A stretch of 64,000 nt of DNA from Spirochaetaceae bacterium (GTDB lineage Bacteria; Spirochaetota; Spirochaetia; CADAEX01), in assembly GCA_009780675.1 (NCBI GenBank), contig WQZP01000012.1:3769-67768 (forward strand), given 5' to 3'. The position numbers and the translations under genes are program-made. The notes beneath the pieces are model-generated. The model was not told where the DNA came from. It was given only the letters and a program-made list of their open reading frames with translations, and did no database searches. How positions within the stretch are numbered: position 1 is the stretch's first letter; every line of letters begins with the position of its first letter. This document shows positions 1,212 through 24,501 of this stretch, piece after piece.

Positions 1212-1799
1212 ATGTATCCTCTCTTGATTTTTTCAATACTTGCTGTTGCTGTGATTGCAGAGAAAATCGCAGACCTATATAAAATTGCAATTAACAGAAA
1301 TACTTTTAATAAAATAGTGCACTTGTCCAGAGAGAAGAACAAAAAAGATCTGTTACTATATCTTGATACTAAAATAGCAAAAAATAAAATATACAATAAC
1401 TCCATTGAATTAATAAAAAAAGCAGCAGAGCAAGGCGCAGGTTTTAAAAAAGAATGTGATGTTGAAATTTCTTTATTAATAACAAAAATTTCTGAAAGAA
1501 TACATCTTCTTGATCTTGTTGGGAGAATTTCTCCAATGATTGGGCTTACAGGAACTGTTATAGGGCTTGCGAGAATTTTTCAAAGTGTATCTGCTTCCGG
1601 AAGAACAGGAGACCCTGCAGTGCTTGCTGGCGGTATATGGGAAGTGATGATCACTACGATTGCAGGGCTTTTAATAGCTATTACTTCAATAGTTGCAGCT
1701 CATGCAATCCGGAGTAGTTTTAAAAAATATATTGAGCGACTCAAATTTTGCTGCAGTGCTGTTTTATTTGAATCTGTCATCGCGGATGATCCAAAATGA
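1212..1799 (+). CDS. exbB: MotA/TolQ/ExbB family proton-channel protein
   Basis: Likely start is the ATG at 1212, 5-8 nt after AAGGGAGG. Three TM-like stretches. The C-terminal half (GLTGTVIGL.., AGGIWEVMITTIAGLLIAI) matches the ExbB/TolQ family. The stop overlaps the next start (ATGA). Confidence 0.8.
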   Translation: MYPLLIFSILAVAVIAEKIADLYKIAINRNTFNKIVHLSREKNKKDLLLYLDTKIAKNKIYNNSIELIKKAAEQGAGFKKECDVEISLLITKISERIHLLDLVGRISPMIGLTGTVIGLARIFQSVSASGRTGDPAVLAGGIWEVMITTIAGLLIAITSIVAAHAIRSSFKKYIERLKFCCSAVLFESVIADDPK

Positions 1800-2242
1800 A
1801 AGAAGTAAAAGAAAACCAAATATCTGATAAGGATATTTATTTTGAAAAATTATCAGAAGATTCTTTTCCTGACCTTACCCCGCTTATTGATGTAGTTTTT
1901 ATGCTGATAATATTTTTTCTTCTTACACCAACTTTGATGGGAGAAAGAAGTTTGTCCATAAATCTTCCAGCATCATCTGCAGGGGAAATATTGCAGGCAG
2001 AAAATATAGTAATTGAAATCGATAAAGAAAATAATATTTTTTTTCAAAATACTAAAACAGATTTTGGACAAATAGAAATTATTTTAAGAGATATAATAGC
2101 AACAGCCAACAACCCTCTTCCGGAAATAATCATAAGAAGTGATGAGGAGTGTAGCTTTGGAACAGTTGTCCGGTTAATGGAGATAATACAAAATAGCGGG
2201 TATGATGCAATATCATTTGCTGTAAGGGACAAGTCGTTATAA
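1796..2242 (+). CDS. exbD: ExbD/TolR biopolymer transport protein
   Basis: One N-terminal TM (DLTPLIDVVFMLIIFFLL) followed by a periplasmic domain. Translationally coupled to exbB. Confidence 0.8.
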   Translation: MKEVKENQISDKDIYFEKLSEDSFPDLTPLIDVVFMLIIFFLLTPTLMGERSLSINLPASSAGEILQAENIVIEIDKENNIFFQNTKTDFGQIEIILRDIIATANNPLPEIIIRSDEECSFGTVVRLMEIIQNSGYDAISFAVRDKSL

Positions 2243-2429
2243 GACGCTATATTTTGCTGTTAAAGTATTCCTTGTGTTATGCAATCATAAAAATTGTTAC
2301 ACAGCCACCGCCATGGACAGCGGTGGTTTTTATCTTTATTATTTTAAATCATTTCCCAAAAATATTAGAAAAAGAAACTCCTGCCATAATACAACATTGA
2401 TTTGACAGTTTGTCCGGGTATAAGCGTAA

Positions 2430-3848
2430 TTACCTAGCTCTGATTGAAAAATCTCTCCACACATTCGCTCCTTGATACGCACTTACAGAATCTGCTGGGA
2501 CAATCAGCGTAACATCACTTCTTTCTACACGGTCAAATACATTGGCTTGAATTGCCTGAGGTCTGGCTGCCATATTGGTTATTTCAACCAAATTTGTACA
2601 CCGCCAAAAAACATTGGTTCCAATGGCATTTACCCGGCTGCCTATGACCACATATTCCAGACTCGCAACTCCACTGAACAGACTATTCGGTATACGCCTT
2701 ACATTTTCACCAAAAACAACCCTTTCCAGAACCGGGCAGTCGGCAAAATGGTTGTTTGCGCCACCAACATCCGCAGCATTGCGGGCATTAAAATAAACTG
2801 TCTGCAGGCGGGAAGAACGTCTGAAAGCAGCTTGGCCGATGGAAGTAATATTTTCGGGAATGGTAAGGGTAGTTATACTGGTATTAAAAAATGCCTGTGG
2901 TCCTATTTCACTTAAGCCGCTGCCAAGTGTAATTGATCTTACACTAATGTTATTGTAAAATGCATTTTGTCTGATTGTATGTACAGAGTCCGGTATGACA
3001 ATTTCTGTCAAATTCCTGCATCCGGAAAAAGCATATCTGTCTATTTGAGTAACACTGTTTCCAATAGTAATAGAAGTCAAACCGGATTGTCCGATAAAAA
3101 GAGCAGAAGGAATACGTTGAACATTATTTCCAAAAATAACCGTTCTTAGAGCATTCAGTCCACTAAACGGATGAAGCACGCCAAATGCAGGATCAAAACC
3201 GCTCATGTTTTCTGCATTAAAATAAATAGTCGTTAAATTGCCTGAGTCTGAAAAAACATTTGCCCCCATAGAAGATATACCTTCAGGGATAGTGACCACT
3301 GTTAAACCGTTGTTTCGAAATGCTCCGTTAGGCAGTTCGGTGATTCCCCTGCCAATATGTAAGGAAGTTAACTGCACACAATTTTCAAATGCGGCGGGAC
3401 CCAAAGTTCTTACAGTATCAGGAATAACAAGGTTTGTTAAACCGCTTCTGGTAAACGCAAAAGAACCTATTGCAATAACGCTGGCCGGAATATCGACAGA
3501 ACTTAATCTGGAACACTGGGCAAAAGCATAATTGCCAATATGAGTTACGGTATTTCCTATACTTACCGATGTCATGGCAGAATGACCAAAGAATGCATAT
3601 CCACCAATATTTGTAACACCGTTTTCAATTACAACTCTATTTATACTGCCAACATGGCTCTGCCAAGGGCGGTTGCTTGTTGAACCCCAATCATCAGGCA
3701 TCTGACCATTGCCGGAAATTGTTAATATGCCATTTGAAAATGTCCAACCAAGGGAAGTCCCAAAAGACCCTTGAGTTTGGGAATTTGCCGAGATTACGAT
3801 TAAGCAAAATATAGCTAATGTCAAAATAATACATTTATTATTTTTCAT
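2430..3848 (-). CDS. secreted BspA-type leucine-rich-repeat surface protein
   Basis: N-terminal signal peptide (MKNNKCIILTLAIFCLIVISANSQ). Repeated ~23-aa units (IGxYAFxxCxxLTSVxIPxSVTxIG) typical of LRR_5/BspA proteins. Confidence 0.75.
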   Translation of the reverse strand: MKNNKCIILTLAIFCLIVISANSQTQGSFGTSLGWTFSNGILTISGNGQMPDDWGSTSNRPWQSHVGSINRVVIENGVTNIGGYAFFGHSAMTSVSIGNTVTHIGNYAFAQCSRLSSVDIPASVIAIGSFAFTRSGLTNLVIPDTVRTLGPAAFENCVQLTSLHIGRGITELPNGAFRNNGLTVVTIPEGISSMGANVFSDSGNLTTIYFNAENMSGFDPAFGVLHPFSGLNALRTVIFGNNVQRIPSALFIGQSGLTSITIGNSVTQIDRYAFSGCRNLTEIVIPDSVHTIRQNAFYNNISVRSITLGSGLSEIGPQAFFNTSITTLTIPENITSIGQAAFRRSSRLQTVYFNARNAADVGGANNHFADCPVLERVVFGENVRRIPNSLFSGVASLEYVVIGSRVNAIGTNVFWRCTNLVEITNMAARPQAIQANVFDRVERSDVTLIVPADSVSAYQGANVWRDFSIRAR

Positions 3849-3901
3849 ATTGCACTCCTTTAGCTTATTATATATTTTTCTTGATTTCTGTCAATAAATC
3901 A

Positions 3902-4112
3902 CAATGGCTCACGTTAAATCAAACCATGAGAGGAGAAAAATCTCAAGTACCGGAAATAATCATAAAAAATGATGAGGAGTGTAGCTTTGGAACAGTTGTC
4001 CGGTTAATGGAGATAATCCAAAATAGCGGGTATGATGCAATATCATTTGCTGTAAGGGAAAAATCGTTATAAGATGCTATATTTTACTGTTAAAGTATTC
4101 CTTTGTTACTTG
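3902..4112. repeat. 48-bp leader (3902-3949) followed by a duplicated copy of the exbD 3' end and downstream sequence
   Basis: 3950-4112 is a near-identical direct repeat of 2119-2280 (the last ~40 codons of exbD plus ~40 bp downstream), with a few mismatches. ORF 3881-4072 translates to the ExbD C-terminus. Confidence 0.85.
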
Positions 4113-4295
4113 AAGCTGTTTATGTAATATCTTATTCCACAGATTCCCTTTGATTTCACCAGTCCCTTTGGAAATTTTGGTAAATCTTGGCATCCCATCA
4201 GCATTGTCTTTTCTATAGAAATAATGGTCTGTATTTTTATATAATTCCCAGCCATCCCGCTCACAAAATCGTTTTAAATCTTTCCACGACGGCAT
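4077..4295 (-). CDS. HicA/YcfA-family toxin (mRNA interferase-like)
   Basis: 72 aa. DGWELYKNTDHYFYRK...GTGEIKGNLWNKILHKQL fits the YcfA/HicA pattern (GWxxxxxxxH...G.LxxILKQ). Overlaps the upstream gene by 22 nt. Confidence 0.55.
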   Translation of the reverse strand: MPSWKDLKRFCERDGWELYKNTDHYFYRKDNADGMPRFTKISKGTGEIKGNLWNKILHKQLQVTKEYFNSKI

Positions 4296-4696
4296 TTTAT
4301 TGAACCTTCTATCTTGTCAACATCGCCAAGAATCAGGGCTTTGAAAACATATGGAATATGAAGCTTTCTGTTACCTCTGGACCAATAAGCGAATTCATTG
4401 TAATAATCTTCTGAATATTCAAGGATAGCGCTGGCTAACCTGGATATAGCGCTTTGCATATCAGGAGCGTTCTCTACTAAGTCAATTTCATCAAGAGATA
4501 TAGTGACAGAGCCGTCATCTTCAATCAGGGTTTCAGCATGAAAAGAGTAAGCAGATAATATGTTTTCCAAAACATTCATATCGGAAAGAAACAAATAGTC
4601 TCTTGTTCTCTTGATGAATGCTGGTTTTTCTCTGATAACTGACTCAACAAGCGAACTCCACTCATTTCTTGCTGTTGTAGCGTTAATAGTATGCAT
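4274..4696 (-). CDS. putative antitoxin with a Phd/YefM-like N-terminus and HicB-like remainder
   Basis: N-terminal INATTARNEWSSLVESVIREKPAFIKRTRDYLFLSDMNV resembles the Phd/YefM antitoxin N-terminus. Operon-coupled with the HicA-like gene. Confidence 0.4.
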   Translation of the reverse strand: MHTINATTARNEWSSLVESVIREKPAFIKRTRDYLFLSDMNVLENILSAYSFHAETLIEDDGSVTISLDEIDLVENAPDMQSAISRLASAILEYSEDYYNEFAYWSRGNRKLHIPYVFKALILGDVDKIEGSIKCRRGKI

Positions 4697-4834
4697 ATCA
4701 ATTACTCCTCATCACATACTATTGCACAATATGTACACATTGTCAACAATGTCCTTTTTCAGTTTTTTTGTAGCGCGCCATGATATATTATTTTATCATG
4801 ACACAGGCCGAAGGGCTAGGTTATTTTATACTCG

Positions 4835-4975
4835 TTATCTGCTATATTGCTTTTTATTCGATAATTCTTTCATTAAATTACTTGCTGCCATAGACGATTC
4901 CAGTATATCTTTAATGTAATTATAACCTGAGTCAATATCCTCATCAAATACTTTGGAAAAAACCAATTCGAGCAT
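4835..4975 (-). pseudogene. truncated ParE/RelE-family toxin (46 aa, N-terminal half only)
   Basis: ATG at 4975 lies 2 nt after the antitoxin stop. MLELVFSKVFDEDIDSGYNYIKDILESSMAASNLMKELSNKKQYSR* matches the ParE N-terminus, then a TAA stop. No continuation in any frame. Confidence 0.5.
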
Positions 4976-4977
4976 TA

Positions 4978-5241
4978 TCAGTTTCCAATGTATTTATGAA
5001 TTTTCTTGAACACTTTTTCCTTAGAAATTGTTTCACCATTTTTAATTTGATTCATGCCTAATTGAAGGGATTTATACAATTCAATTTTTCCAACTAATTC
5101 CTCATATACTTGAATACTCATTACTGCTAGATCCCCCTGTCCATTTTTAGTAATAAATATTGGCTCTCTATTATTATGACAAAAATCTGAAATTTCTCCA
5201 TAATTATTCCGTAAGTCTGCACTTTTCCTTATAACTGGCAT
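4978..5241 (-). CDS. Phd/YefM-family antitoxin
   Basis: 87 aa. ADLRNNYGEISDFC..NREPIFITKNGQGDLAVMSIQVYEEL matches the Phd/YefM signature. Confidence 0.65.
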   Translation of the reverse strand: MPVIRKSADLRNNYGEISDFCHNNREPIFITKNGQGDLAVMSIQVYEELVGKIELYKSLQLGMNQIKNGETISKEKVFKKIHKYIGN

Positions 5242-5308
5242 TCATTACCTCCTTACTTAATTTAACAATAATAATATATCATTATTTTGATATATTATCA
5301 ATAGTTCG

Positions 5309-5489
5309 CAATGGCTCACGTTAAATCAAACCATGAGAGGAGAAAAATCTCAAGTACCGGAAATAATCATAAGAAGTGATATCTTTGCCTACAGCCGAAC
5401 CGCTCGCACTCCGCCATTCGGGTAACTGCGACACAGGAATCCATGTTTAGCAATTCCGGACATTATCTGTATTGCACGCTCCAGCTACC
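5309..5489. repeat. composite repeat: 48-bp leader + 25 bp of the exbD 3' fragment (5309-5380) fused to an orphan LRR 3'-UTR element (5381-5489)
   Basis: 5309-5380 is identical to 3902-3973. The junction ..aagtgat|atctttgcctacagcc.. is the same as at 7318-7336. 5381-5489 matches 7325-7433, including the last 8 codons (GSWSVQYR*) of an LRR gene, with no gene body. Confidence 0.85.
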
Positions 5490-5556
5490 TATTCATGCAT
5501 GGCGTTGTTATTAAAAATATTTTTATAGAAAAATTTAATAGCGCTAATAACAAGAT

Positions 5557-5685
5557 TTATGTAAGAGGCTGAGTACTCATTACAAAACTATGATGTTCCA
5601 TGATATGAAAAAGAACTTGAGCGGGTTTTGATGAAGGAAACAGTAGAGCAGAAAAAATGATATTTGTATCTGTCATTACCTTCAT
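5557..5685 (-). pseudogene. possible truncated PIN-domain toxin (42 aa)
   Basis: MKVMTDTNIIFSALLFPSSKPAQVLFHIMEHHSFVMSTQPLT* resembles a PIN N-terminus (TDTNii.sall). It ends where the repeat block begins. Confidence 0.3.
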
Positions 5686-5775
5686 TTGCGGTTTTCCCTA
5701 GAATACCTTACTTCATCAACAAGCTGTTGAATATCTTCTTCTTTAATTTTTTATATTGTTTCATTTGTCATATTG

Positions 5776-6150
5776 TCATCCAATCTCTACAACTTCACCT
5801 ATGGAAAACAACAAATTATATAATTCAATATTTTCATCAAAATCAACTAAATCAAATTCATTTTCTAAAATATTGTTTAATTTTGAGTATGTTCTTATGT
5901 AATTTTTTGGAGATAAACCCATAACTCCAATGTCAATATCTGATAATTCGGTATACTTTCCTGTTGCTAATGAACCAAAAAGGAAAATTGAAGTGCAGCC
6001 TTCTTCCTTTAAACACATAGTAGCCTTTTCAATATCCTGTCGATATTTTTCAGGAATTTCTGGTAAAGTCATAATAAATAATATATACTTATTTGTGATG
6101 GTGTCAAGTGCATTTTTCATTAATTTGGAGATTTTGGATAATTCTAGCAA
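5776..6150 (-). CDS. minimal nucleotidyltransferase (MNT), pol-beta superfamily; antitoxin-like
   Basis: IFLFGSLATGKYTELSDIDIGV contains the GS..G...D.D nucleotidyltransferase motif. Confidence 0.65.
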   Translation of the reverse strand: MLELSKISKLMKNALDTITNKYILFIMTLPEIPEKYRQDIEKATMCLKEEGCTSIFLFGSLATGKYTELSDIDIGVMGLSPKNYIRTYSKLNNILENEFDLVDFDENIELYNLLFSIGEVVEIG

Positions 6151-6387
6151 AATTTACAAAATTTTTCAGCTCAATTGCATATAACGTATTATATGCGAAC
6201 TTCGTATAATCTTCATCCGAAGATATAACGCGAAATAAAGGTTCGTGTTATATCAAAAACAAATGTAAAGGGAAAATCACACAATGTAAAGAATCTTGCA
6301 AACTTGGGCTCTGCATAATTTTTCATTTTTTTATCTTACAGCAGACCACGCGGGCTTTTGCCTACGTTACTGAGTAAGAAAAATAAA

Positions 6388-6696
6388 TTAACCTGGCGGA
6401 TTTTTAAATTTTACAGCAGGCCGTTGCAAAAATTCTAACTTGAGGGTCATATTCATGGCAGAAGCTAGCCGCTTTAATGTCTGCAAGGTGGGGTTGCCAT
6501 CGCCTGCTTCCAGTTTGCTTATATCACTTTGGGCTATACCTGTGCGTTCGGAAAGCTGCTTCTGGGTAAGTCCTGCATTTTTACGAGCATCTATAATGGC
6601 TTGGACAATCGCAAACTCTGGCTCTAATGCATCCCATTCAGCGCGAATTTCAGGGTTCTTCAATTGTTCATCAAGAAATTTTTTCCACTCGCTCAT
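6388..6696 (-). CDS. HTH XRE-family antitoxin (HigA-like)
   Basis: GLTQKQLSERTGIAQSDISKLEAG is a helix-turn-helix. Overlaps the upstream toxin gene by 4 nt. Confidence 0.7.
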   Translation of the reverse strand: MSEWKKFLDEQLKNPEIRAEWDALEPEFAIVQAIIDARKNAGLTQKQLSERTGIAQSDISKLEAGDGNPTLQTLKRLASAMNMTLKLEFLQRPAVKFKNPPG

Positions 6697-7058
6697 TTCC
6701 GACTCTCCTTTCTACTTAAATATTCTGTACGATACCTTTTTGCTCTTTCAATTTCAGATGACGGCGTCTTTTGCATTTTTTTGATAAAGCCGTGTGTTAG
6801 AATGGCTTTCCGCCCCACAATAAAGAAGTATAGAATACGGGATATATCCGCACCTACCTGCGCACGAAGCTCAAAAATACCACTATCTAGATGCTTTGAA
6901 TAAGGCTCTCTCAACTCTGAACCATTGGTTTCCAAAAAATCAACAACCCTAAGCATTTTAGCTCTCATTTTTGGAGCTAATCTCAAGATAAAGTCTTTAG
7001 CGGGTTCTGTCTCATCGGCCTTATCATAAAATTTGATTTCAAATTTTAAATCCCGCAC
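6693..7058 (-). CDS. HigB/RelE-like toxin (Gp49/DUF891-type addiction module killer)
   Basis: 121 aa. ILYFFIVGRKAILTHGFIKKMQKTPSSEIERAKRYRTEYL is typical of the HigB-like Gp49 family. Toxin-first gene order. Confidence 0.7.
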   Translation of the reverse strand: MRDLKFEIKFYDKADETEPAKDFILRLAPKMRAKMLRVVDFLETNGSELREPYSKHLDSGIFELRAQVGADISRILYFFIVGRKAILTHGFIKKMQKTPSSEIERAKRYRTEYLSRKESRK

Positions 7059-7311
7059 AATATTTTGCCTTTACCAGTGCATATACTTACAATATAGGAT
7101 ATATCCGATATTGTCAAGATGCTGTATTTATCAAACTTTTTCATGAGGAAGAAATTTACTTTTCTCATTTTTATGTTTCCCTTTGTTTCTGTATAATAGT
7201 TGCCAATAAAAGCGTTGCCGCCAGTAGCTATACTTTTATAACTGAATAAAAAGAGGTTTTGCTTCAAAAAGAGATTTTAATTACTGTTTTTGCAAAAAAT
7301 TTGAGTTTTGT

Positions 7312-7433
7312 CATAATAAGTGATATCTTTGCCTACAGCCGAACCGCCCGCACTCCGCCATTCGGGTAACTGCGACACAGAAATCCATGCGCAGCGATTC
7401 CGGACATTATCTGTATTGTACGCTCCAGCTACC
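7312..7433. repeat. GC-rich LRR 3'-UTR element, copy 2, preceded by a 'cataataagtgat' remnant of the exbD-fragment junction
   Basis: Aligns with 5368-5489 and 8421-8513. Confidence 0.8.
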
Positions 7434-8315
7434 ATTTAATGTATAAGCTCCTGCTCTACGCTCTTGATAGTTATAGAATTCAACAAATTCTTGGTTGAAA
7501 GCATTATTTTCTATCTTGATGTTTGCTCCAATAATAATGCTGGTTAATGGAGGCAACCCTAAAGCTCTAAATGCATTATCCTCGATAATAGTCACGCTAT
7601 CAGGAATAACAACGCTGGTCAGTTGATTCCAACTAAATGCACCTTTTTCGATAATAGTCACGTTGTCGGGTATAATAATGCTGGTCAGTTGATTTCCAGT
7701 AAATGCATCCTCTTCGATAATAGTCACGCTGTCTGGTATAACAACACTGGTCAATCGATTATCAGCAAATGCACCAGTCCTGATAATAGTCACGTTGTCG
7801 GGTATAATAACGCTAGTCAGCCGATTAGCAGAAAATGCATACCTCCCGATAGTAGTCACGCTGCTGGGGATAACAACGCTGGCCAATCGGTTACGGCGAA
7901 ATGCCCACTTCCCGATAATAGTCACGCTGTCAGGTATAACAACACTGGTCAATCGATTATCAGCAAATGCACCATTCCCGATAATAGTCACGCTGTCTGG
8001 TATAACAACACTGGTCAATCGATTATCAGCAAATGCACCAGTCCTGATAATAGTCACGCTGTCAGGTATAACAACACTGGTCAGTCGATTACCAAAAAAT
8101 GCATCCTTCCCGATTGCAGTAACAGGCAAGTTTTGTATTTGGGGAGGAATTCGCACATCTGTATTTCTTCCATTATATTTGGTAATTTCTATTGCAGTAC
8201 CGCCCTCAATAACCCGCACAGTAAAATTTTCTTCAGGTTCAAATTGTGGCTGGGTATATGCTAAAAATGCTGTCAACAGTATCAGAATAATTCCAAAAAT
8301 AATTTTTCTGTTCAT
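7407..8315 (-). CDS. secreted leucine-rich-repeat protein; member of a tandem paralog pair
   Basis: Signal peptide MNRKIIFGIILILLTAFLAYTQ. About 9 tandem 23-aa (69-bp) repeats NRLTSVVIPDSVTIIxxxAFxx. Confidence 0.8.
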   Translation of the reverse strand: MNRKIIFGIILILLTAFLAYTQPQFEPEENFTVRVIEGGTAIEITKYNGRNTDVRIPPQIQNLPVTAIGKDAFFGNRLTSVVIPDSVTIIRTGAFADNRLTSVVIPDSVTIIGNGAFADNRLTSVVIPDSVTIIGKWAFRRNRLASVVIPSSVTTIGRYAFSANRLTSVIIPDNVTIIRTGAFADNRLTSVVIPDSVTIIEEDAFTGNQLTSIIIPDNVTIIEKGAFSWNQLTSVVIPDSVTIIEDNAFRALGLPPLTSIIIGANIKIENNAFNQEFVEFYNYQERRAGAYTLNGSWSVQYR

Positions 8316-8420
8316 AAAACCCTCTTTATTTATTGCAATATAAATCCTTATATTTCAAAACAACGTATTGTTCATAATAAAATCCAACTGCAGTCAAATA
8401 GCTCGCGATTCGTCTTTCAG

Positions 8421-8513
8421 CACCGCCCGCACTCCGCCATTCGGGTAGCTGCGGCACAGGAATCCATGCTCAGCGATTCCGGACCCTACTTAAATTGCAC
8501 GCTCCAGCTACCA
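8421..8513. repeat. GC-rich LRR 3'-UTR element, copy 3
   Basis: accgcccgcactccgccattcgggtagctgcggcacaggaatccatgctcagcgattccgga... Conserved with the copies at 5381 and 7325. Confidence 0.8.
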
Positions 8514-9517
8514 TTTAATGTGTAAGTTCCTGCTCTACGCCCCTGATAGTTATAGAATTCAACAAATCCTTGGTCGAAAGCATTATTTGCTATCTTGATG
8601 TTTGCTCCAATAATAATGCTGGTTAGTCGATTCCTACTAAATGCATTATCCTCGATAATGCTCACGCTATCTGGAATAATAACACTGGTTAGTTGATTCC
8701 AACTAAATGCACCCTCTTCGATAATAGTCACGCTATCAGAAATAATAACGCTGGTTAATTGGTTCCAAAAAAATGCATTCCTCCCAATAGTAGTCACGCT
8801 GTCAGGTATAACAACACTGCTCAGGTAATTCCAACTGAATGCATTCTCCCCGATAACAGTCACACTGTCGGGTATAACAACACTGGTCAATCGGTTAACA
8901 GAAAATGCACTATCCATGATAGTAGTCACACTGTCGGATATAATAACGCTGCTCAGGTAATTCCAACTGAATGCATTCTTCCCGATAACAGTCACGCTGT
9001 CGGGTATAACAACGCTGGTCAATCGGTTAACAAAAAATGCACTATCCCTGATAATAGTCACGCTGTCAGGTATAACAACGCTGCTCAGGTAATTCCAACT
9101 GAATGCATCCTTCCCGATAGTAGTCACGTTGTTGGGAATAACAACGCTGGTCAATCGATTACGAAGAAATGCATACCTCCCGATAATAGTCACGTTGTCG
9201 GGTATAACAACGCTGGTCAGTCGATTATCAGCAAATGCACTATCCCTGATAATAGTCACGCTATCGGGTATAACAACACTGGTCAGCCGATTACCAAAAA
9301 ATGCATCCTTCCCGATTACAGTAACAGGCAGATTTTGTATTTGGGGAGGAATTCGCACATCTGTATTTCTTCCATTATATTTGGTAACTTCTATTGCAGT
9401 ACCACCCTCAATAACCCGCACAGTAAAATTTTCCTCAGGCTCAAATTGTGATTGGGTATATGCGAAAGATGCTGTAAACAGTATCAAAATAATTCCAAAA
9501 ATAATTTTTCTGTTCAT
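8486..9517 (-). CDS. secreted leucine-rich-repeat protein; paralog of 7407-8315
   Basis: Near-identical N-terminal 90 aa and C-terminal 40 aa to the neighbour, with about 11 repeat units. The upstream region (9560-9607) also duplicates 8362-8408. Confidence 0.8.
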   Translation of the reverse strand: MNRKIIFGIILILFTASFAYTQSQFEPEENFTVRVIEGGTAIEVTKYNGRNTDVRIPPQIQNLPVTVIGKDAFFGNRLTSVVIPDSVTIIRDSAFADNRLTSVVIPDNVTIIGRYAFLRNRLTSVVIPNNVTTIGKDAFSWNYLSSVVIPDSVTIIRDSAFFVNRLTSVVIPDSVTVIGKNAFSWNYLSSVIISDSVTTIMDSAFSVNRLTSVVIPDSVTVIGENAFSWNYLSSVVIPDSVTTIGRNAFFWNQLTSVIISDSVTIIEEGAFSWNQLTSVIIPDSVSIIEDNAFSRNRLTSIIIGANIKIANNAFDQGFVEFYNYQGRRAGTYTLNGSWSVQFK

Positions 9518-9611
9518 AAAAACCCTCTTTATTTATTGCTATATAAATCCTTATCTTTCAAAATAACGTACTGTTCATAATAAAATTCAACTGCAGTCAA
9601 AGAGCTCGCGT

Positions 9612-10658
9612 TTATCTTTTTGGCAGCAGTTGCGAAAGGTAAGTGGATAAAATATCTTTGTATTCTTTTTCTATTTTTTGCTCTGCTGATACAAACACAC
9701 GGTTTTCTGCTCCTGCAACTGTGGGATGCCCTTCTCGAATATTAAAAGTGAATGGCAATAATACCTCTCGCGTGACAGTATCAGTAAGGTTTGCGCTTAA
9801 TTCCATAAGAATAAATCTGTGCGGATTATCAGGAAAATCAACAGGCGAAAGCCATACATTTACTCGAAGCGCATAACGCGAATTACTTCCTCCACTTCTA
9901 AATCCAAAATCAGTAAAAGTTTTCGCGAAAGCATCCTGAATTCTTCCGGCTCTATCGTTGTTAACAACTATATTGACCGGAATGGCTCTGGTTATGTTTC
10001 GCGCTTCCAGCCGGTATTCGTCGCCTCTTCTAACCCCTGCGGGTGTTCTTGCGCCCAGCATATTCAATAAATTAGCATAAGTGATATTTATATCTGCCAC
10101 TGTTGCGGCGAATTGAAATCTGGAAAAACCTTCCAGAGAATTTCTTTCAGCCTGACTCATGGTAGTAAGATTTCTAATCATTTCCAGATTGGCTAATATC
10201 ATATCTGTGTACAAGCGAATGGTTTTTGCCCTTTCCATGACTGCAACAGCATAAAAAATATTGTGCCGTGTGTCCTGCCATACATCTTTTATTTCCGCTC
10301 CAATAAGATTATCCATCGAAACTGATGTTCTTATTGTATTTTGCATGGCGATATTATCGACCCAGCCTATGGTAATGCCATCTCTTACAGCTTCAAGATA
10401 TGTATTTACTATTATTTGATCTGCCTGTATGGATTGACCAAAAAAAGCAGCCAGATTTGCAATAGCGTTTCTTTCTGCCATTTCGCGGTCTGTAGCATGG
10501 CCCACTGCAGCAATGAATTGCGATCTGCTGTAAACAGAATCAACAGAATCGACCCATGCAGGTTTTCCGCTGTTGCCAGGCGAACTTGCGCAGGAGAAAA
10601 ACAACAGCATCAGCGGAAAAAAGAAAAAATTATTCGCTAACTTGAAGAGGTCTTTCAT
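9612..10658 (-). CDS. lipoprotein with an N-terminal LPP20-like domain
   Basis: Probable start is the ATG at 10658 (MKDLFKLANNFFFFPLMLLFFSCASS lipobox). KPAWVDSVDSVYSRSQFIAAVGHATDREMAERNAIANLAAFFGQSI fits the LPP20/FlgP-type fold. Confidence 0.5.
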   Translation of the reverse strand: MKDLFKLANNFFFFPLMLLFFSCASSPGNSGKPAWVDSVDSVYSRSQFIAAVGHATDREMAERNAIANLAAFFGQSIQADQIIVNTYLEAVRDGITIGWVDNIAMQNTIRTSVSMDNLIGAEIKDVWQDTRHNIFYAVAVMERAKTIRLYTDMILANLEMIRNLTTMSQAERNSLEGFSRFQFAATVADINITYANLLNMLGARTPAGVRRGDEYRLEARNITRAIPVNIVVNNDRAGRIQDAFAKTFTDFGFRSGGSNSRYALRVNVWLSPVDFPDNPHRFILMELSANLTDTVTREVLLPFTFNIREGHPTVAGAENRVFVSAEQKIEKEYKDILSTYLSQLLPKR

Positions 10659-11214
10659 TTCTTGCAAGTTGGGCATCAAGCATCTGTAAAGCTTGTTGCG
10701 CTTTGAACTGGGCAAAAGCAGCTTCCTGATTATTAAGAATACTTGCTACTTCCCTTCTGGCATCAGCTTTTCTGTACTCAACAAGAAACCACCAGTATCC
10801 ATCCGGAGCTTCCCATCGCCTGATGGGGTGTGCGCCAGTAAGATTTATACTGCTAACCTGGCGGCTTACATCTTCCTGCAAGGAAGCGTTAGCTTGATTG
10901 TTTACATTGCCTGCATCAAGATTGTAGTCTGTGAACATAGCCTGAACTAAAGTATCAAGCTGACGCGTAATAGCGGTTCTTCCCCTGGCTTCCGCTGTTG
11001 TCATGGACATGGAACGGGAAGATTGTTTTGCGGTTCCAATACCCCAAATAACATCATTTGGCGGCAAATCATTTAACCATTCCGGCGTGTTAGCCATTCT
11101 GCCTGTGGCAGGGGCAGACCCGCACCCTGCGACAAAAACTACTATGAATACCAGTATTATTGCCGTTACTCCAATTGTAAACAAATTTTTCTGTTTCATT
11201 TTTTTCTCCTTCAA
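10630..11214 (-). CDS. LPP20-like lipoprotein
   Basis: Lipobox VFVAGCGS. PEWLNDLPPNDVIWGIGTAKQSSRSMSMTTAEARGRTAITRQLDTLV matches the LPP20 domain pattern. Confidence 0.55.
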   Translation of the reverse strand: MKEKKMKQKNLFTIGVTAIILVFIVVFVAGCGSAPATGRMANTPEWLNDLPPNDVIWGIGTAKQSSRSMSMTTAEARGRTAITRQLDTLVQAMFTDYNLDAGNVNNQANASLQEDVSRQVSSINLTGAHPIRRWEAPDGYWWFLVEYRKADARREVASILNNQEAAFAQFKAQQALQMLDAQLARNERPLQVSE

Positions 11215-11308
11215 AATTTATTTTGCACACATTTTTATCATGTGCGAGAATGACCACTTTAGTTCTAAAATTTTGCCGCTATGCGTGTACACGAATCTTT
11301 CTCGTTTT

Positions 11309-12295
11309 TTATATTTTTTCAAGACTTCTCGAAAAACACCAACCACGCTTTTCGTCTTTTGTAATAATTTCAAACCATGTATTAGTAAGAGTTATATCAT
11401 CTCCTGTGCTTATGTGTTGCACTTCTGCCCCATTAGGAATTACTGCAAAATGATCAATTGATACATTAGGTTCTTTTCTTAACTCCATCCCATAAGATCC
11501 AGTGGGGAACGATCTAACACGATGTGTGGGAATGAATTCTTTATAAATATTTATACCAGAAAATAATTTTAACATCCGCCTTCTATCACCCATAGCAATT
11601 ATTCCTATTTTTTCAAGATCATCTTCTGTCAATTCGGAAATTATTTCTAAATCAGTCAATTTATTTTTTTCAAAAATATCGATATATTCATCCAGATTAT
11701 TTTCCCGGAGTATATCATTCCATTTTTTTTCGACTCCACATATTTGTGAAATTTGATTTGAAGGCGGTAAAATATTTTTCTTATTATTCCATAAAAAATC
11801 CAATGTACTCATAATACTTTGAATTTCAACCTGTAGTTCTTTAAAGCGATTAGAATTTATTTTTATAGAGCTACTCAGCAACGGTACAGAAATAAAGGGA
11901 TTATTAAAATCATTCATTTTAAATATTAAGTCAATTTCAGATATTTTCTCTGGCGCATCAGCACCTATTAATGCGCCAGAAGCTGCACCAAGTCCGCCAA
12001 GCATTGTTGTCCTGCCAGAAGCAGATGATGCATAACTTCCGGTTGCGCCTGCTCCTAATAAGCCGCCAAGTAATGCGCCACCTAAGCCACCCAGCAGAGC
12101 TCCTGCCCCAATGCTTCCTGCTGTATTTTTCTTGGTGTCACCGGTAGTAATTTTATATTCTGTTACCTCATTAATATTAAATATTTTGACTGAATATGAA
12201 TATGGATTTATACCAATGTAGCCATTCTCATTTATTGCAACAGGTATCTCTATAGCTTGTTGAAATATCTTTGCTCCTTTTAATTTATCATCCAT
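11309..12295 (-). CDS. glycine-zipper + SAM-like + SH3b multidomain protein
   Basis: Gly-zipper stretch GAGALLGGLGGALLGGLLGAGATG...GGLGAASGALIG. SAM-like helix bundle DEYIDIFEKNKLTDLEIISELTEDDLEKIGIIAMGDRRRMLKLF. C-terminal SH3b-like beta domain. No signal peptide. Confidence 0.45.
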   Translation of the reverse strand: MDDKLKGAKIFQQAIEIPVAINENGYIGINPYSYSVKIFNINEVTEYKITTGDTKKNTAGSIGAGALLGGLGGALLGGLLGAGATGSYASSASGRTTMLGGLGAASGALIGADAPEKISEIDLIFKMNDFNNPFISVPLLSSSIKINSNRFKELQVEIQSIMSTLDFLWNNKKNILPPSNQISQICGVEKKWNDILRENNLDEYIDIFEKNKLTDLEIISELTEDDLEKIGIIAMGDRRRMLKLFSGINIYKEFIPTHRVRSFPTGSYGMELRKEPNVSIDHFAVIPNGAEVQHISTGDDITLTNTWFEIITKDEKRGWCFSRSLEKI

Positions 12296-12384
12296 AATTA
12301 TCCTCTAACTTATTTGCATTTTTCCTGGCATTTTGTTTTTTGATTTTCATTGCTATTTAATTTTACCATTTTGTTGCTTCCTTA

Positions 12385-14466
12385 CTATGTCAACAACTTA
12401 ATACCGATACTAATGGCATGGGCTCTTATTCTCTCGCTCTTAAATAATTTATATTTGTACTCATTCCATCTCCACCCATTCCATTCATACCCACTAGACA
12501 CTTCATTCCAATTCATCTCATACCACGTTAGTCTGTATTTAAAAAAAAATGGTTGAAATGATAAGCCGAAGTTTAATGAAGGAGTTGCCCAATCTGTAAT
12601 AATGCCCTTCATACCTGGTGGGAACATTCCCATTTCAAGTGCTAGATTAGAAAACACTTTTAGATTACTGCCAAGGGGATATACCAAGCCAATATTTGGA
12701 GAAATAATAAAAGTCATGTTTGAAGAATAACTTCCTCCATCTTCCGATTCATACTCATACTCTCCAAAAAACCCTAACCTCAAATCTATTCCAGATGTAA
12801 TATAGGGAATTAATGTAAAATAATAATTAACTTCAGCGCCAATAATACCAGGAGCATAATCTGACCATTGATAATAACCAGAAAGGGCAATAAAATTTTT
12901 ACTAGCATTACGTCTTTTTTCTGCTGCCTTCCTTTCTCTCTGCTGTTGAAGCTCCCTCGCTCGTTGTTCTTGAGCTCGTTGCTCTTGAGCCCGCTGTTCT
13001 TGAGCTCGTTGTTCCGCGACCTCACGTTCACGTATTCTTTTCTCGAAATCCCCTGTTTCGATCCTCATATAACCAGTAGCAGCTAGATTATGCGAAGAAA
13101 CCCCGTTAACCGCAACGATCATAATAGTAAGTGTTGGCGTTAAAATTTCTGGAGTTGCATTTACATTGTTAAACATAACTATCCCTTCGACACTAGATGG
13201 TGGTGTTACAATTCTGTCCCCTGCATTAAAATTGATTGGGTCAGTGTTCAAAGTAATACTGCTTCTGCCAATAGTTCTCCCATTTTCATTTATAAGCGCA
13301 ACATCTACTTTGTAACTAAAAGAACGCCTGCCGCCAAATACTGCAGTTCCTCGTGCTTCTCGTGAATTATCCATAACAAATGGCCAGCCAGAGAAGCCCC
13401 ATATTTCGCGCCTGCCAGTTCTTTCAAGTCCTTCCAGCAATGCATTGAGCGCGTCAAAACCAGCCTTTGATGAATCAAGAGCTACCCTCATTCCCAAAGT
13501 TGCGGTACGCCTGGCAAAATCAGTTTCACCAATTTGAATAAGATTTGGGTCAAAGACTATCTCAAAGGGTGGGTGGTCACTAAAAAAACGAGTGGTTTCT
13601 CTAAATGCTTCAAGCCATCTATCGCGCGCTTGAATGTCGTTTAAAATTCTCTGGCTAATCGTTCCATCAGTTATGGAGGCGGAAAGTGTATTGAGCCGCG
13701 ATAATGCTTCGAGTTGTGATGGGTCAAAGGAAGCAGCCTGAGCAAAATTTAATAAAGCTTCTACTTCTGACCCGCCAGCTTGTGCTGTGATTCCTCTTGC
13801 AAGTCCTGCTTGCGCCTGTACTGTTGAGATATTCCCTGCCAACAACGATTGTCTTCCCGCATCTGTTAACTGGACTCCCATTTGGGCAAGAAGTTCCGCA
13901 GTTGCTTCATTTAAAAGCGTTGCTCGCCCTTCTAGCTGCGCGAGAGTCCCTTCCTTCATAAAAGTTGCCCTGCGCACCCCTGTACTTGATTCAGTAATAG
14001 CGAGTTGTAGAGCAAACCGATTTCCAGGCAGTCTTTGAATTGTTCCAAAAAGATTAAACTGGGTATTGGTTAAATTACCAATGCGCACAAAATCTTGATC
14101 TGAAAATCTACCGCTTGCAGCAATATTCTGTTCAGCAATTATTCTATCTAAATGTTGACGGTCTATTAAGTTGATGGCGGAAAACCTGTTAAAGTTGTTA
14201 TTTAACATCCCTTGAATATATAATGGTAAATGAGCTGGTACATCACCTTGAATTTCAGGAGCAACAATAGCAAGGCGTATATTACTGCCGCCATTACCTC
14301 TCCACATTGGGCCAGTAGCTGCTTCCAGTCGGCCAATAGCCCCACGAGCGGTTATTCCCAGTTCATCAGTAGCAGGAGAAGTTCCACGTACTTCGCCAGT
14401 TGACGAACAAGCGATTAAAATCACGACTGCTAAAAGCAGTAAAACTATGTGCTTAAGGGTTTTCAA
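12385..14466 (-). CDS. large lipoprotein: N-terminal LpoB/CsgG/TolB-N-like (LppaM-clan) domain, charged (AQEQR)n linker, C-terminal outer-membrane beta-barrel-like domain
   Basis: Lipobox LIACSS. NIRLAIVAPEIQGDVPAHLPLYIQGMLNNNFNRFSAINLIDRQHLDRIIAEQNIAASGRF..FGTIQRL fits the LpoB/CsgG-type fold. The last ~180 aa alternate aromatic/hydrophobic residues, consistent with a beta-barrel. Confidence 0.5.
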   Translation of the reverse strand: MKTLKHIVLLLLAVVILIACSSTGEVRGTSPATDELGITARGAIGRLEAATGPMWRGNGGSNIRLAIVAPEIQGDVPAHLPLYIQGMLNNNFNRFSAINLIDRQHLDRIIAEQNIAASGRFSDQDFVRIGNLTNTQFNLFGTIQRLPGNRFALQLAITESSTGVRRATFMKEGTLAQLEGRATLLNEATAELLAQMGVQLTDAGRQSLLAGNISTVQAQAGLARGITAQAGGSEVEALLNFAQAASFDPSQLEALSRLNTLSASITDGTISQRILNDIQARDRWLEAFRETTRFFSDHPPFEIVFDPNLIQIGETDFARRTATLGMRVALDSSKAGFDALNALLEGLERTGRREIWGFSGWPFVMDNSREARGTAVFGGRRSFSYKVDVALINENGRTIGRSSITLNTDPINFNAGDRIVTPPSSVEGIVMFNNVNATPEILTPTLTIMIVAVNGVSSHNLAATGYMRIETGDFEKRIREREVAEQRAQEQRAQEQRAQEQRARELQQQRERKAAEKRRNASKNFIALSGYYQWSDYAPGIIGAEVNYYFTLIPYITSGIDLRLGFFGEYEYESEDGGSYSSNMTFIISPNIGLVYPLGSNLKVFSNLALEMGMFPPGMKGIITDWATPSLNFGLSFQPFFFKYRLTWYEMNWNEVSSGYEWNGWRWNEYKYKLFKSERIRAHAISIGIKLLT
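12957..13020. repeat. 15-bp imperfect tandem repeat (x4) inside the CDS, encoding (AQEQR)n
   Basis: tcgttgttcttgagc / tcgttgctcttgagc / ccgctgttcttgagc / tcgttgttccgcgac. Confidence 0.7.
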
Positions 14467-14484
14467 AATATGGCTCCTTAAATA

Positions 14485-14943
14485 CTATCTTCTATCCGTA
14501 CGATATAGTAAAAAATATAATTCGCCATTACTCTCACGATGAAAGTAAAATGTATAACCACGCGCACCTTGAGGTGTCTGATTTAGTATGACTTGCCATG
14601 TTTCTCCTCGTCTTATAGTTTCATTATGTAAAGCCGCTTCTGCTCTTTGAAGTAATTGCTCTTCAAGTGAATTTAAACGGTCAACTCTATACATAAAAGC
14701 ACCAGTATTGAGTATTCTTGCGATTTCATTGATACCAGACACAAAATTTGCTATTTCACTTACCCAAGTTCTATCAGTTAGCGTGGTATATCCGATCTCA
14801 ACTGATGTAACAGAGAAAGAAGCAGCTGTTTGACCCCATGCGCCAATATTAATCAGTAATAAGAGAGCCAATAAAAACATTTTTCTAATCTTATATCTCA
14901 TCATCTTTTTTCTATCCTCCCCAAAACAAAATGCTTTTTTCAT
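14485..14943 (-). CDS. small secreted hypothetical protein; first gene of the lipoprotein operon
   Basis: Signal peptide (MFLLALLLLINIGAWGQ). A 19-nt gap to the next gene. Ribosome-binding site AGAGGG upstream. Confidence 0.4.
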   Translation of the reverse strand: MKKAFCFGEDRKKMMRYKIRKMFLLALLLLINIGAWGQTAASFSVTSVEIGYTTLTDRTWVSEIANFVSGINEIARILNTGAFMYRVDRLNSLEEQLLQRAEAALHNETIRRGETWQVILNQTPQGARGYTFYFHRESNGELYFLLYRTDRR

Positions 14944-14988
14944 ATGTTCCCTCTTGAACTCGCGCCTTATAAATTATCAGGTATATAG

Positions 14989-15177
14989 TTACTCCTCATC
15001 AATTGTTTTTCTTGTTTGAATGGGGCGCAATTCTTGGGTTTTATCGCTATTTATACCCGCAGGAGATACGGTAATTACAGTCTTTTTCCCCTGCTTCTCA
15101 ATTTCGCTCACTTTAAGACCTGCTTTTTCGAGAGCTATTAGTAGGGGTTCATAAGTGTCGACGGAAGTGAATTTCAT
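14989..15177 (-). CDS. possible small protein (62 aa)
   Basis: Good ribosome-binding site (AAGGGG, 5 nt before the ATG). Non-repetitive hydrophilic sequence. Confidence 0.25.
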   Translation of the reverse strand: MKFTSVDTYEPLLIALEKAGLKVSEIEKQGKKTVITVSPAGINSDKTQELRPIQTRKTIDEE

Positions 15178-15296
15178 ATAGCCCCTTATTATTCTATAAT
15201 AGAATTATTTACCCATTATGGAATATGAACATACAAATTGTCAAGACACAATAATGAAAGATGACAATTTTTAGAGTTTATGTAATAATTTAGGAA

Positions 15297-15704
15297 ATGA
15301 AACAAACTTACGGAGAGCGTCTGGCAGCAGCTCTAAGACACAAGAACCTTAAACAAGCAGATTTGGCCAGCGAACTTAATATAGTGCAGGGTACAGTTTC
15401 AAAGATCATCAATGGTACCCAATATCTCGATTTTGATTTGGCAGTAAAGGCATGCAAAATCCTTGATATTTCTCTGGACTGGTTGGCTTATGGTGGCGAC
15501 CAAGTTGCCAAACCCAAGTTTTACCACAACCCAGAAAGACAACGGATTGAATATCTTTTGTCGATAATAAATGAAGCTGAATACCCCTTAATTATTGTAG
15601 CAATGGAGGAAATAATCGAAATCAGGCTCAAGGACGAAGCGTCAGAAAGCTCAGAAAAACCCTGCAAGCCAAACATACCAGATAATCATAAGAGAAAAAA
15701 ATAA
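15297..15704 (+). CDS. HTH XRE-family transcriptional regulator
   Basis: LKQADLASELNIVQGTVSKIINGTQ is a helix-turn-helix. Divergently transcribed from the lipoprotein operon. Confidence 0.7.
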   Translation: MKQTYGERLAAALRHKNLKQADLASELNIVQGTVSKIINGTQYLDFDLAVKACKILDISLDWLAYGGDQVAKPKFYHNPERQRIEYLLSIINEAEYPLIIVAMEEIIEIRLKDEASESSEKPCKPNIPDNHKRKK

Positions 15705-15831
15705 CCTGCACGGCTGATTGTTCCAGTCAGAGCTATGCCTTAAACTAATTTGCCCATTGCGAATTATTGTAATATTCCCACATCTAAATTATAATGCTAT
15801 AACTTTTCCCCCAATTTTCAGGAGTGTAAAA

Positions 15832-16752
15832 ATGATTGACTGGCTTCGAAAAAGCATTGCGCGAAAACCAATACTATTATTTATCTGCGGAGCGTTGGCA
15901 CTATTGCTGGCGAGTAGCTGCCGCCCTACGCCTCAGGAACCGATTGCGCCGCGCATCCCTTCAACTCTAAGAATTCTCGATGACCTGGAAGCTCAAGAAA
16001 GACTCATGCTCACTTTTGCCAAAGCACACCCAACAAAAATCTCTGGCGTGGAATTCATGGACAATGACTGGACCATGCTGGTCAATGGTGTCCGCTTTTT
16101 CTTTGCGCAAGGCAGGTTCTTGCCAGAAGAGTTACGCGACAAGTGGGAAGAATTTTACCCTTATGACTTTTACGATTATCCATGGGTTGGCACACCCAGA
16201 GAAAGGCGAGCTGCGTTTGAAAATCCTGTTCGTTCTGTTGGCTCCCCTTTTTTGTTTGACATACTCTATTTTTCATTAACAGAAGATGACAGTTGGGATA
16301 AGCAGGTAAAGTATTCTTTTCTGGGCGTTAAAATGCTAATCCATAATCATATTGAACCTTTTCTGGACCTCGTACAGGAACGTATCCGCGCTGCTGCCAA
16401 AACTGATCCATCAATAAATGAATGGATTGCTGAACTTCGAACCAGTCCGCCAAGCTTTGGCTGGAATTGGCGCAACATAGCCAGCACCAATCGCCGCAGC
16501 CTTCATTCTTACGGCATAGCTCTTGACCTGTTGCCCAAAGATATGGAGAACATTCAAACCTATTGGCAATGGGGTGTCGATGAAACAGATCTTGAAAATC
16601 TTTATATGCCGCCGGAAGCAGTTATCAGGGCTTTTGAAGCTTATGGCTTTCTTTGGGGCGGTAACTGGAGCTTGATCGATACAATGCATTTTGAATACAG
16701 ACCAGAAATATTATTGCTGAATAACTTTGTCATAGAGCATTTGAATCATTAG
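15832..16752 (+). CDS. M15-family (VanY-like) D-Ala-D-Ala/L,D-carboxypeptidase; probable lipoprotein
   Basis: Start at 15832 after AGGAG. Signal peptide/lipobox LLASSC. Zinc-binding motifs SLHSYGIALD (SxHxxGxAxD) and DTMHFEY. Confidence 0.7.
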   Translation: MIDWLRKSIARKPILLFICGALALLLASSCRPTPQEPIAPRIPSTLRILDDLEAQERLMLTFAKAHPTKISGVEFMDNDWTMLVNGVRFFFAQGRFLPEELRDKWEEFYPYDFYDYPWVGTPRERRAAFENPVRSVGSPFLFDILYFSLTEDDSWDKQVKYSFLGVKMLIHNHIEPFLDLVQERIRAAAKTDPSINEWIAELRTSPPSFGWNWRNIASTNRRSLHSYGIALDLLPKDMENIQTYWQWGVDETDLENLYMPPEAVIRAFEAYGFLWGGNWSLIDTMHFEYRPEILLLNNFVIEHLNH

Positions 16753-16819
16753 GATTGTTGCCTGATAGTGTCCGGCAGAATTACCACATGGAGAAAGAGA
16801 TGAAAAAGGTGAGCAATAG

Positions 16820-17704: not shown

Positions 17705-17725
17705 TATATAATAGAAGGAGTTGCT

Positions 17726-18991: not shown

Positions 18992-19004
18992 ACGGCAGTA
19001 GTTT

Positions 19005-21356: not shown

Positions 21357-21383
21357 GCATTTCCAAATTACAAGGAGCTTAGT

Positions 21384-22826: not shown

Positions 22827-22837
22827 GGAAAGAAGAT

Positions 22838-24115: not shown

Positions 24116-24467
24116 AAAACAAATCACCTGTATTATCTGCCCGCAGGGGTGTGATATTTTGGTTGATGGTGATGGAAATAATATTCGCTCCATGGCTGGA
24201 CAAGATTGCAAACGGGGGGAGACCTATGCCCGTGATGAATTTATACATCCCCTGCGGGTTCTGACTTCAACAGTCAAAGTTATTGGAGCAGATGTGCCAC
24301 TTGTAGCAGTCAGAACAAGTAAGCCCATCCCAAAAGATTTACTTTTTCGTGGCATGGATGAGATACAAAAGGTTCAAGCTAAGGTTCCGGTCAAACGAGG
24401 CGATGTTATTATCCCTGATTTTCTGAATACCGGCGCTGATCTGGTAGCAACCGGAGAAGCTTGTTAG
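24108..24467 (+). CDS. DUF1667-domain protein
   Basis: ITCIICPQGCDILV cysteine motif. About 119 aa. Overlaps the preceding gene. This gene trio is a conserved arrangement often annotated as an anaerobic glycerol-3-phosphate dehydrogenase-like complex. Confidence 0.65.
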   Translation: MAEKQITCIICPQGCDILVDGDGNNIRSMAGQDCKRGETYARDEFIHPLRVLTSTVKVIGADVPLVAVRTSKPIPKDLLFRGMDEIQKVQAKVPVKRGDVIIPDFLNTGADLVATGEAC

Positions 24468-24501
24468 AAAACAAAAAAAAATATTTAAGGAGAATCAATA
24501 C

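Follow-up and report, generated by a model that had tools for sequence, protein, structure and literature searches.

A recombination mosaic behind exbD of an uncultured gut spirochete, marked by duplicated ends of two convergent genes

We analysed a 64,000-nt stretch of DNA from a Spirochaetaceae bacterium (Spirochaetota; Spirochaetia; CADAEX01; contig WQZP01000012.1 of assembly GCA_009780675.1, positions 3,769 to 67,768, forward strand), hereafter the window, in which direct repeats containing the 3' end of exbD are interspersed with BspA-type leucine-rich repeat (LRR) genes and toxin-antitoxin genes. A first-pass annotation, made from the letters alone, had read this locus as an accessory island built by cassette insertion or recombination, and its gene calls were matched by domain calls with Pfam and NCBIfam. 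All cassette genes lie on the minus strand, and the region that carries the repeats contains the following features.

1212..1799, plus strand: exbB (Pfam MotA_ExbB, E 3e-22), syntenic with related loci
1796..2242, plus strand: exbD, intact, 148 aa (Pfam ExbD, E 5e-26)
2120..2279, plus strand: repeat copy A; live 3' end of exbD at 2120-2242, 4-nt spacer, opposite-strand relic of the hicA 3' end at 2247-2279
2303..2338, plus strand: exbD intrinsic terminator, with a 9-bp stem and a T run (fold z-score -2.95)
2430..3848, minus strand: LRR1, BspA-type, 472 aa (Pfam LRR_5, E 5e-77)
3867..3894, minus strand: LRR1 promoter, 12/12 positions of the sigma-70 consensus (TTGACA, 16 nt, TATAAT)
3902..3949: leader copy 1, 48 nt, immediately upstream of the LRR1 promoter -35 box
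3950..4108, plus strand: repeat copy B, with a relic exbD 3' end (3950-4072) and the live hicA 3' end (4077-4108)
4077..4295, minus strand: HicA-family toxin, 72 aa (alignments to plasmid HicA; Pfam HicA_toxin match weak)
4274..4696, minus strand: PHD_like antitoxin, partner of hicA, 140 aa (PF12910, E 1e-28)
4835..4975, minus strand: truncated 46-aa open reading frame (ORF) downstream of phd
4978..5241, minus strand: Phd/YefM antitoxin (Pfam, E 4.5e-10)
5273..5301, minus strand: phd promoter, collinear with the LRR1 promoter (TTGATA, 17 nt, TATATT; 10/12)
5309..5380: leader copy 2 (5309-5356) joined to a 24-nt exbD fragment (5357-5380)
5381..5500, minus strand: orphan LRR 3' element, the last 8 codons (GSWSVQYR and stop) plus about 95 nt of 3' flank
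7311..7444, minus strand: LRR2 3' flank, including TCATAATAAGTGAT at 7311-7324
7407..8315, minus strand: LRR2 (BspA-type, LRR_5), tandem paralog of LRR3
8422..8523: conserved 3' element of LRR3
8486..9517, minus strand: LRR3 (BspA-type, LRR_5), tandem paralog of LRR2

When the window was compared with itself by BLAST, 2120-2279 and 3950-4108 matched over 160 bp at 95% identity (E 1.7e-66); base by base, copies A and B differ at 8 of 160 positions, with a longest identical run of 48 nt. Additionally, 3866-3973 matches 5272-5380 at 88% (E 8e-30) around a core (3902-3973 and 5309-5380) that has 2 differences in 72 positions and 64 identical nt, and 2120-2143 equals 5357-5380 at 24/24 positions. 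Further along, 5367-5493 matches 7311-7436 at 93% (E 1.7e-46) and 8422-8515 at 86%, the extended pair 5367-5500 and 7311-7444 is 91% identical (12 differences in 134), and LRR2 and LRR3 form a tandem duplication (7343-8417 and 8422-9619). The 14-mer TCATAAGAAGTGAT has three matches with at most one mismatch (at 2130, 5367 and 7311), where 0.05 would be expected by chance. The repeat copies all lie head to tail in a single orientation, and the divergence of the exbD pieces, counting the fragment at 5357-5380 as C, is mutually compatible (A-B 8/160, or 5%; B-C 2/72, or 2.8%; A-C 0/24). Self-BLAST and a repeat search therefore reproduced every repeat that the first-pass annotation had described, far beyond chance. 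The same arrangement, without insertions or deletions, occurs in contigs from three samples that are 99.6-100% identical to the window (an ENA ERZ27257297 contig, 99.85%; JGI 3300010369 contigs L002, 99.6%, and L021, 100%; Logan SRR5215140 contigs L012 and L019, 100%), and a single single-nucleotide polymorphism (SNP) falls inside 2120-5500 among these near-identical assemblies.

The 160-bp repeat comprises 123 nt of exbD, a 4-nt spacer, and the stop plus about 10 codons of hicA. In a distant plasmid search, 4075-4300 of the window matched plasmid genes of Clostridium botulinum and Bacillus cereus that are annotated as HicA-family toxins; the 72-aa product aligns end to end with these toxins at 65-67% identity, and the overlapping two-gene layout of hicA and PHD_like is the same on the plasmids. 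Specifically, the C-terminus QVTKEYFNSKI, which is conserved in plasmid HicA, is encoded together with its stop by 4077-4108, inside copy B. The 33-nt hicA relic of copy A reads ...KEYFNSKI and stop, is cut by an upstream stop and, called against outgroups, has acquired one derived substitution and a 1-nt indel, and the exbD relic of copy B carries two derived nonsynonymous changes relative to outgroups. The exbD of copy A has the same length as its homologs of 76-83% identity, and its terminator lies just beyond copy A and is not present after copy B. As read from the sequence, copy A is live for exbD and relic for hicA, and copy B the reverse. As had been claimed, direct repeats with the exbD 3' end bracket LRR1. 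The further "40 bp downstream" (about 37 nt) are likewise repeated, but they are the native 3' end of a convergent hicA, so that the repeat is not a site specific to exbD. Since the repeat is the duplicated junction of two convergent genes, exbD faced hicA before LRR1 came between them, and it thus converged on a hicA-type toxin-antitoxin module prior to the arrival of LRR1.

Two other readings of this segment were rejected. The roughly 37 nt after the exbD stop are not a vestige of the tonB 3' end, as alignment to the end of tonB in the window gave p 0.4-0.7 and they correspond to the hicA 3' end. An adenine bias between copies A and B of the kind left by diversity-generating retroelements (5/7 substitutions at copy B adenines, plus an indel) was unconvincing, and the scanned ORFs, which comprised all those of at least 40 aa in the region described here and the main ones in the rest of the 64 kb, yielded no reverse transcriptase domain.

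The second repeated segment, the leader, joins the exbD fragment at 3949/3950 and again at 5356/5357, 1407 bp apart. Its recurrence had been noted correctly, but its left edge had been placed at 3902 and the homology reaches about 36 nt further left, and its identity had to be corrected: it is the stretch upstream of the -35 boxes of two homologous minus-strand promoters, those of LRR1 and phd. The homology of these two promoter regions is not significant alone (p 0.09-0.19) and gains credence only from its position on the diagonal of the 72-nt core. A strong promoter-like site was found for each of LRR1, phd and a downstream Gp49 toxin-antitoxin module. Compared with shuffled sequence, the leader shows no significant folding, and BLAST did not find it in the related loci. 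Together with the LRR 3' element, it had 0 matches in two metagenome scans, over a collection without even the known JGI contig, and a genome scan returned only a chance match in Phyllobacterium.

The orphan LRR 3' element, into which the leader and exbD fragment run, is real in that it keeps the final 8 codons of an LRR ORF, and its flank of about 95 nt is common to LRR2 and LRR3. Its junction with the exbD fragment lies within TCATAAGAAGTGAT, and at this place the intact LRR2 flank has TCATAATAAGTGAT, which matches the exbD fragment at 13/14 positions. The most economical account is that the similarity of TCATAAGAAGTGAT and TCATAATAAGTGAT predates the junction and that a deletion across this microhomology fused the exbD fragment with the flank of an LRR paralog since lost. 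A coding role for the LRR 3' element was rejected, as no reading frame stays open in all copies, and so was a structured RNA or terminator in this element or the leader (fold z-scores -0.4 to +1.3); an Rfam scan of the window returned only a cobalamin riboswitch, and no tRNA was found. The simplest view is that the element is part of a duplicated LRR gene unit.

To place the mosaic in its genomic context, eight related contigs (L003-L008 and L025-L026), which carry four ExbD variants 76-83% identical to that of the window, were compared. In all of them exbD and a convergent tonB overlap by 10 nt, and tonB is followed by a TonB-dependent receptor gene and then by FecCD/ABC transporter genes. 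BLAST of the window against these loci loses synteny at about 2229-2242 and regains it at about 25092. The DNA between these points and the features beyond it are as follows.

2243..25087: 22.85 kb of lineage-specific DNA between exbD and tonB, defined by synteny
25088..25723, minus strand: tonB, displaced
25704..27812, minus strand: TonB-dependent receptor gene
27860..28038, minus strand: cobalamin riboswitch (Rfam, 46 bits)

The ancestral state was therefore one of convergent, overlapping exbD and tonB, and the earlier suggestion that tonB has been displaced is borne out by the overlap in four ExbD lineages and by the synteny breakpoints. The cobalamin riboswitch upstream of the TonB-dependent receptor/tonB operon assigns the displaced tonB to a B12-uptake unit that stayed intact. 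Empty exbD/tonB sites were found only in relatives whose ExbD is at most 83% identical. The description of the intervening DNA as an island of LRR and toxin-antitoxin cassettes holds for its first 7.4 kb or so and not for the rest of the 22.85 kb; the remaining 15 kb or so encode lipoproteins, a lytic transglycosylase, a glycerol-3-phosphate-dehydrogenase-like block and a flavodoxin. Translocation of the 22.85 kb as one conserved block was rejected, as an 85%-identical GlpA-like homolog lies in another context, with glpK, and the region is thus itself composite.

Taken together, these findings lead us, with moderate confidence, to regard the repeats as scars left passively by general recombination, in an accessory region specific to this lineage, and not as the ends of a mobile element. 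In the model that we favour, a unit of about 1.4 kb (equivalent to 3950-5356), which would extend from 123 nt inside the exbD 3' end through hicA/PHD_like and parE-like/phd to 48 nt upstream of the phd promoter, was first duplicated in tandem by an illegitimate event, which would have created the novel joint of leader and exbD fragment. A third unit would then have been added by unequal crossing-over, and this would explain why the joint occurs twice in near-identical form. Subsequently, the toxin-antitoxin genes of the exbD-proximal unit would have been replaced by LRR1 with its own promoter and the terminator at 2303-2338, leaving the 33-nt hicA relic at 2247-2279. The third unit may have been trimmed to 24 nt by a deletion across the 13/14-nt microhomology, TCATAAGAAGTGAT to TCATAATAAGTGAT, with the 3' flank of a tandem LRR paralog as partner, and that paralog could later have been overwritten by further toxin-antitoxin fragments. 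The recurrence of the same novel joint between head-to-tail units, along with the compatible divergence of the exbD pieces, is as tandem amplification predicts, and the "recombination mosaic" of the first-pass annotation is in essence sustained.

Several observations weigh against this model. The interiors of the first two units, 2280-3865 (LRR1) and 4109-5271 (toxin-antitoxin genes), have no similarity in the self-BLAST, so an extra replacement step must be assumed. Additionally, three homology edges fall inside one 24-nt stretch, which a breakage or recombination hotspot would account for more directly. The promoter parts of the repeat at 3866-3973 and 5272-5380 are only about 73% alike beside a 64-nt perfect stretch, which points to an extra conversion or mosaic event that the model does not contain, and the model offers no source for the leader. 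No genome was found in which exbD faces hicA without LRR1, and the order proposed here is accordingly tentative.

The best-surviving alternative, which we regard as unlikely for the locus as a whole, is that LRR1 arrived in a single step, when circular or linear DNA carrying it integrated at the exbD/hicA junction and duplicated 160 bp, either by Campbell-type homologous integration of a circle bearing the junction or by repair of a staggered break. In that case the leader would represent the right-hand end of the insert, and a later local duplication would have put the leader/exbD joint at 5309-5380. The intact flanking genes and the two copies, each half live and half relic, are the classic signature of a target duplication; LRR1 also has its own terminator and a perfect consensus promoter, and its best homolog is 53% identical, consistent with a foreign origin. 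For the A/B pair, single-step insertion is indeed a viable alternative to amplification. However, a Campbell-type circle must have held the same junction beforehand, the second leader/exbD joint (5356/5357) still requires a separate event, and no integrase gene was found among the scanned ORFs. Moreover, to our knowledge, no bacterial insertion mechanism makes a 160-bp target duplication.

On the other hand, a dedicated site-specific system, in which a core of 14-24 nt (CCGGAAATAA-TCATAAGAAGTGAT) serves as the crossover site of a recombinase whose gene lies elsewhere in the genome, appears improbable. Such an enzyme would shuffle promoter-equipped LRR and toxin-antitoxin cassettes in the manner of an integron or an Xer-dependent module, and it would fit the four sites whose core combines three left arms with two right arms, the three homology edges within 24 nt and the co-orientation of the cassettes, as well as contig L014, the source of the closest LRR1 homolog (just 53% identical), which has a toxin-antitoxin/LRR array with hairpin-forming repeats. 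Yet the ORFs scanned in the 64 kb include no recombinase gene and no integrase or transposase domain; the boundaries at 4697-4834 and 6151-6387 lack the core; an inverted-repeat search found no inverted-repeat architecture and no attC-like or other recurrent hairpins at cassette boundaries; and the repeated elements fold no better than shuffled sequence. The repeats are also 5% diverged, the three samples show no variation in the arrangement, the core at 7311 can instead be read as native LRR flank that served as microhomology, and the heptamer-armed elements of L014 are absent from the window island (nhmmer, no match). The "site-directed" recombination proposed in the first-pass annotation is consequently unsupported, with no recombinase gene found among the scanned ORFs, no site common to all boundaries and no variation among the available assemblies. 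A related proposal, that the core at four junctions is a recombination or breakage hotspot used by an unlinked recombinase or an Xer-like host enzyme, seems to us more doubtful still; if true, it would mean that uncultured gut spirochetes have a cassette system that resembles an integron but lacks attC sites. Finally, that a metagenome assembler chimerised or duplicated the exbD end is hardly conceivable, for although the window comes from a metagenome contig with repeats near k-mer length, the structure is identical in contigs assembled from the ENA, JGI and Logan samples and diagnostic differences between the repeat copies make unambiguous assembly possible.

L014 is itself a gut-metagenome contig, on which elements of about 125-225 nt (885-1020, 2827-2955, 3827-4063 and 8975-9108) lie directly 3' of several plus-strand genes, including an LRR gene; they also occur in L015 and L016. 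Their arms are inverted heptamer runs (CAATGAG/CAAATAG ... TTTGCTA/TTTGTTA), and when folded as single-stranded DNA they give long hairpins (z -3.4 to -4.0). Such elements may be cassette borders of an attC-like kind or ones resembling miniature inverted-repeat transposable elements; no integrase gene was called on L014.

Between the orphan element and LRR2, the mosaic continues with further toxin-antitoxin genes and fragments.

5557..5685, minus strand: N-terminal fragment of a PIN-domain toxin, 42 aa (Pfam PIN_3 and TIGR00305)
5776..6150, minus strand: MntA-like nucleotidyltransferase antitoxin, without HEPN partner
6388..6696, minus strand: helix-turn-helix (HTH) antitoxin
6693..7058, minus strand: Gp49 (HigB/RelE-like) toxin

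Adjacent small genes with family-level matches, as expected of type II toxin-antitoxin systems, form the pairs HicA and PHD_like, Phd and a truncated partner, and Gp49 and the HTH protein, the last of which has about 70% DNA identity to a RelE/ParE and HTH pair on a Ruminococcus albus plasmid. The truncated partner of Phd, the 46-aa ORF at 4835-4975, has no family match and no continuation in any reading frame; it is probably a toxin remnant, and we infer only tentatively that it is the N-terminus of a ParE/RelE protein. The PIN fragment matches PIN_3 and TIGR00305 weakly, over profile positions 1-34 only. Four kinds of truncated gene (the toxin remnant, the PIN fragment, the 8-codon LRR remnant and the exbD relics) lie within 1.5 kb, and their density at 4.8-5.7 kb fits repeated illegitimate events. 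A near-perfect 26-nt palindrome, ACAATATAGGATATATCCGATATTGT (7089-7114), overlaps the promoter-like site of the Gp49/HTH module and is probably its autoregulatory operator.

The near-identical assemblies differ in places. Between the window and contig L001, 17 SNPs fall in two patches of a ParA-like gene (4-106 and 490-569), and 20 SNPs of JGI L002 fall in its final 140 nt, inside the nucleotidyltransferase gene (window 5875-6007); L021, from the same sample, is identical to the window across this cluster. SNPs clustered in this way suggest either that tracts have recombined or that haplotypes co-exist.

Past 9.6 kb the window carries two LPP20 lipoprotein genes, the gene of a SAM/SH3 protein and an ORF of 693 aa, followed by a block of higher G+C content with an M15 peptidase, an ArsP permease, DUF362, an SLT transglycosylase, a trio of GlpA-like dehydrogenase genes and a flavodoxin. 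The SAM/SH3 protein (11309-12295, minus strand, 328 aa) joins a glycine-rich segment to a sterile alpha motif (SAM) domain and a bacterial SH3 domain, an architecture uncommon in bacteria. The segment 16000-24500 has 44-50% G+C against about 35-39% in its surroundings, and its GlpA-like protein is 75-78% identical to proteins of Clostridia/Oscillospiraceae, with nearest database homologs at 82-88%; inter-phylum transfer of this block is possible. Past the TonB-dependent receptor gene, two more segments are lineage-specific relative to L003, L004 and L007: 28086-29519, where an HD-domain gene (28186-29415) replaces an ORF6N gene, and 31279-34286, where a 958-aa ORF (31369-34245) with no Pfam match is inserted between the ABC transporter and periplasmic binding-protein genes. 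Two palindromes, 35411-35448 (38 nt, 89%) and 35502-35527 (26 nt, 100%), occupy an intergenic region of 26% G+C upstream of a CDP-alcohol phosphatidyltransferase gene. The window also carries FlaA genes, which, with the names of identical database proteins, place the organism among the Spirochaetaceae.

Among known systems, the locus resembles tandem amplification followed by short-homology deletion in its head-to-tail copies, recurring joint, LRR paralogs, microhomology and relics, and differs in that the unit interiors are no longer homologous and one unit holds LRR1. With integrative islands in gene 3' ends (attL/attR) it shares direct repeats that contain the target 3' end and an intact exbD. 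However, no integrase gene was found, the insert would be one 1.67-kb gene (LRR1), and the repeat spans two convergent gene ends over 160 bp at 95% instead of a short identical core. The integron arrays of oral and gut Treponema likewise consist of small, co-oriented, toxin-antitoxin-rich cassettes in a spirochete (PMC3607928), yet here neither IntI nor attC hairpins were found and LRR1, phd and the Gp49 module have promoter-like sites; the two termite-gut Treponema species examined in that work had no integrons (PMC3607928). The best-fitting category is that of insertion hotspots between core genes with type II toxin-antitoxin occupants, from which nothing essential differs: the flanks (exbD and tonB) are conserved, the content is lineage-specific, and the modules have homologs of about 70% DNA identity on Firmicutes plasmids. 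We therefore consider the locus an ordinary accessory-region recombination mosaic, neither unusual nor in need of a new mechanism.

The one consequence of the structure that we consider likely is a potential for LRR1 to be lost by homologous recombination between the 160-bp repeats, with exbD and hicA unharmed. The useful refinement is that apparent attachment-site repeats are here the duplicated ends of two convergent genes, which calls for caution elsewhere, as fragments of neighbouring genes at cassette borders can mimic attachment sites and yet be duplication scars. For the organism, the locus offers a clean, datable case of BspA-type LRR and toxin-antitoxin genes accumulating between conserved genes in an uncultured gut spirochete, and it indicates that 23 kb can come to separate the genes of a TonB system with all of them intact.

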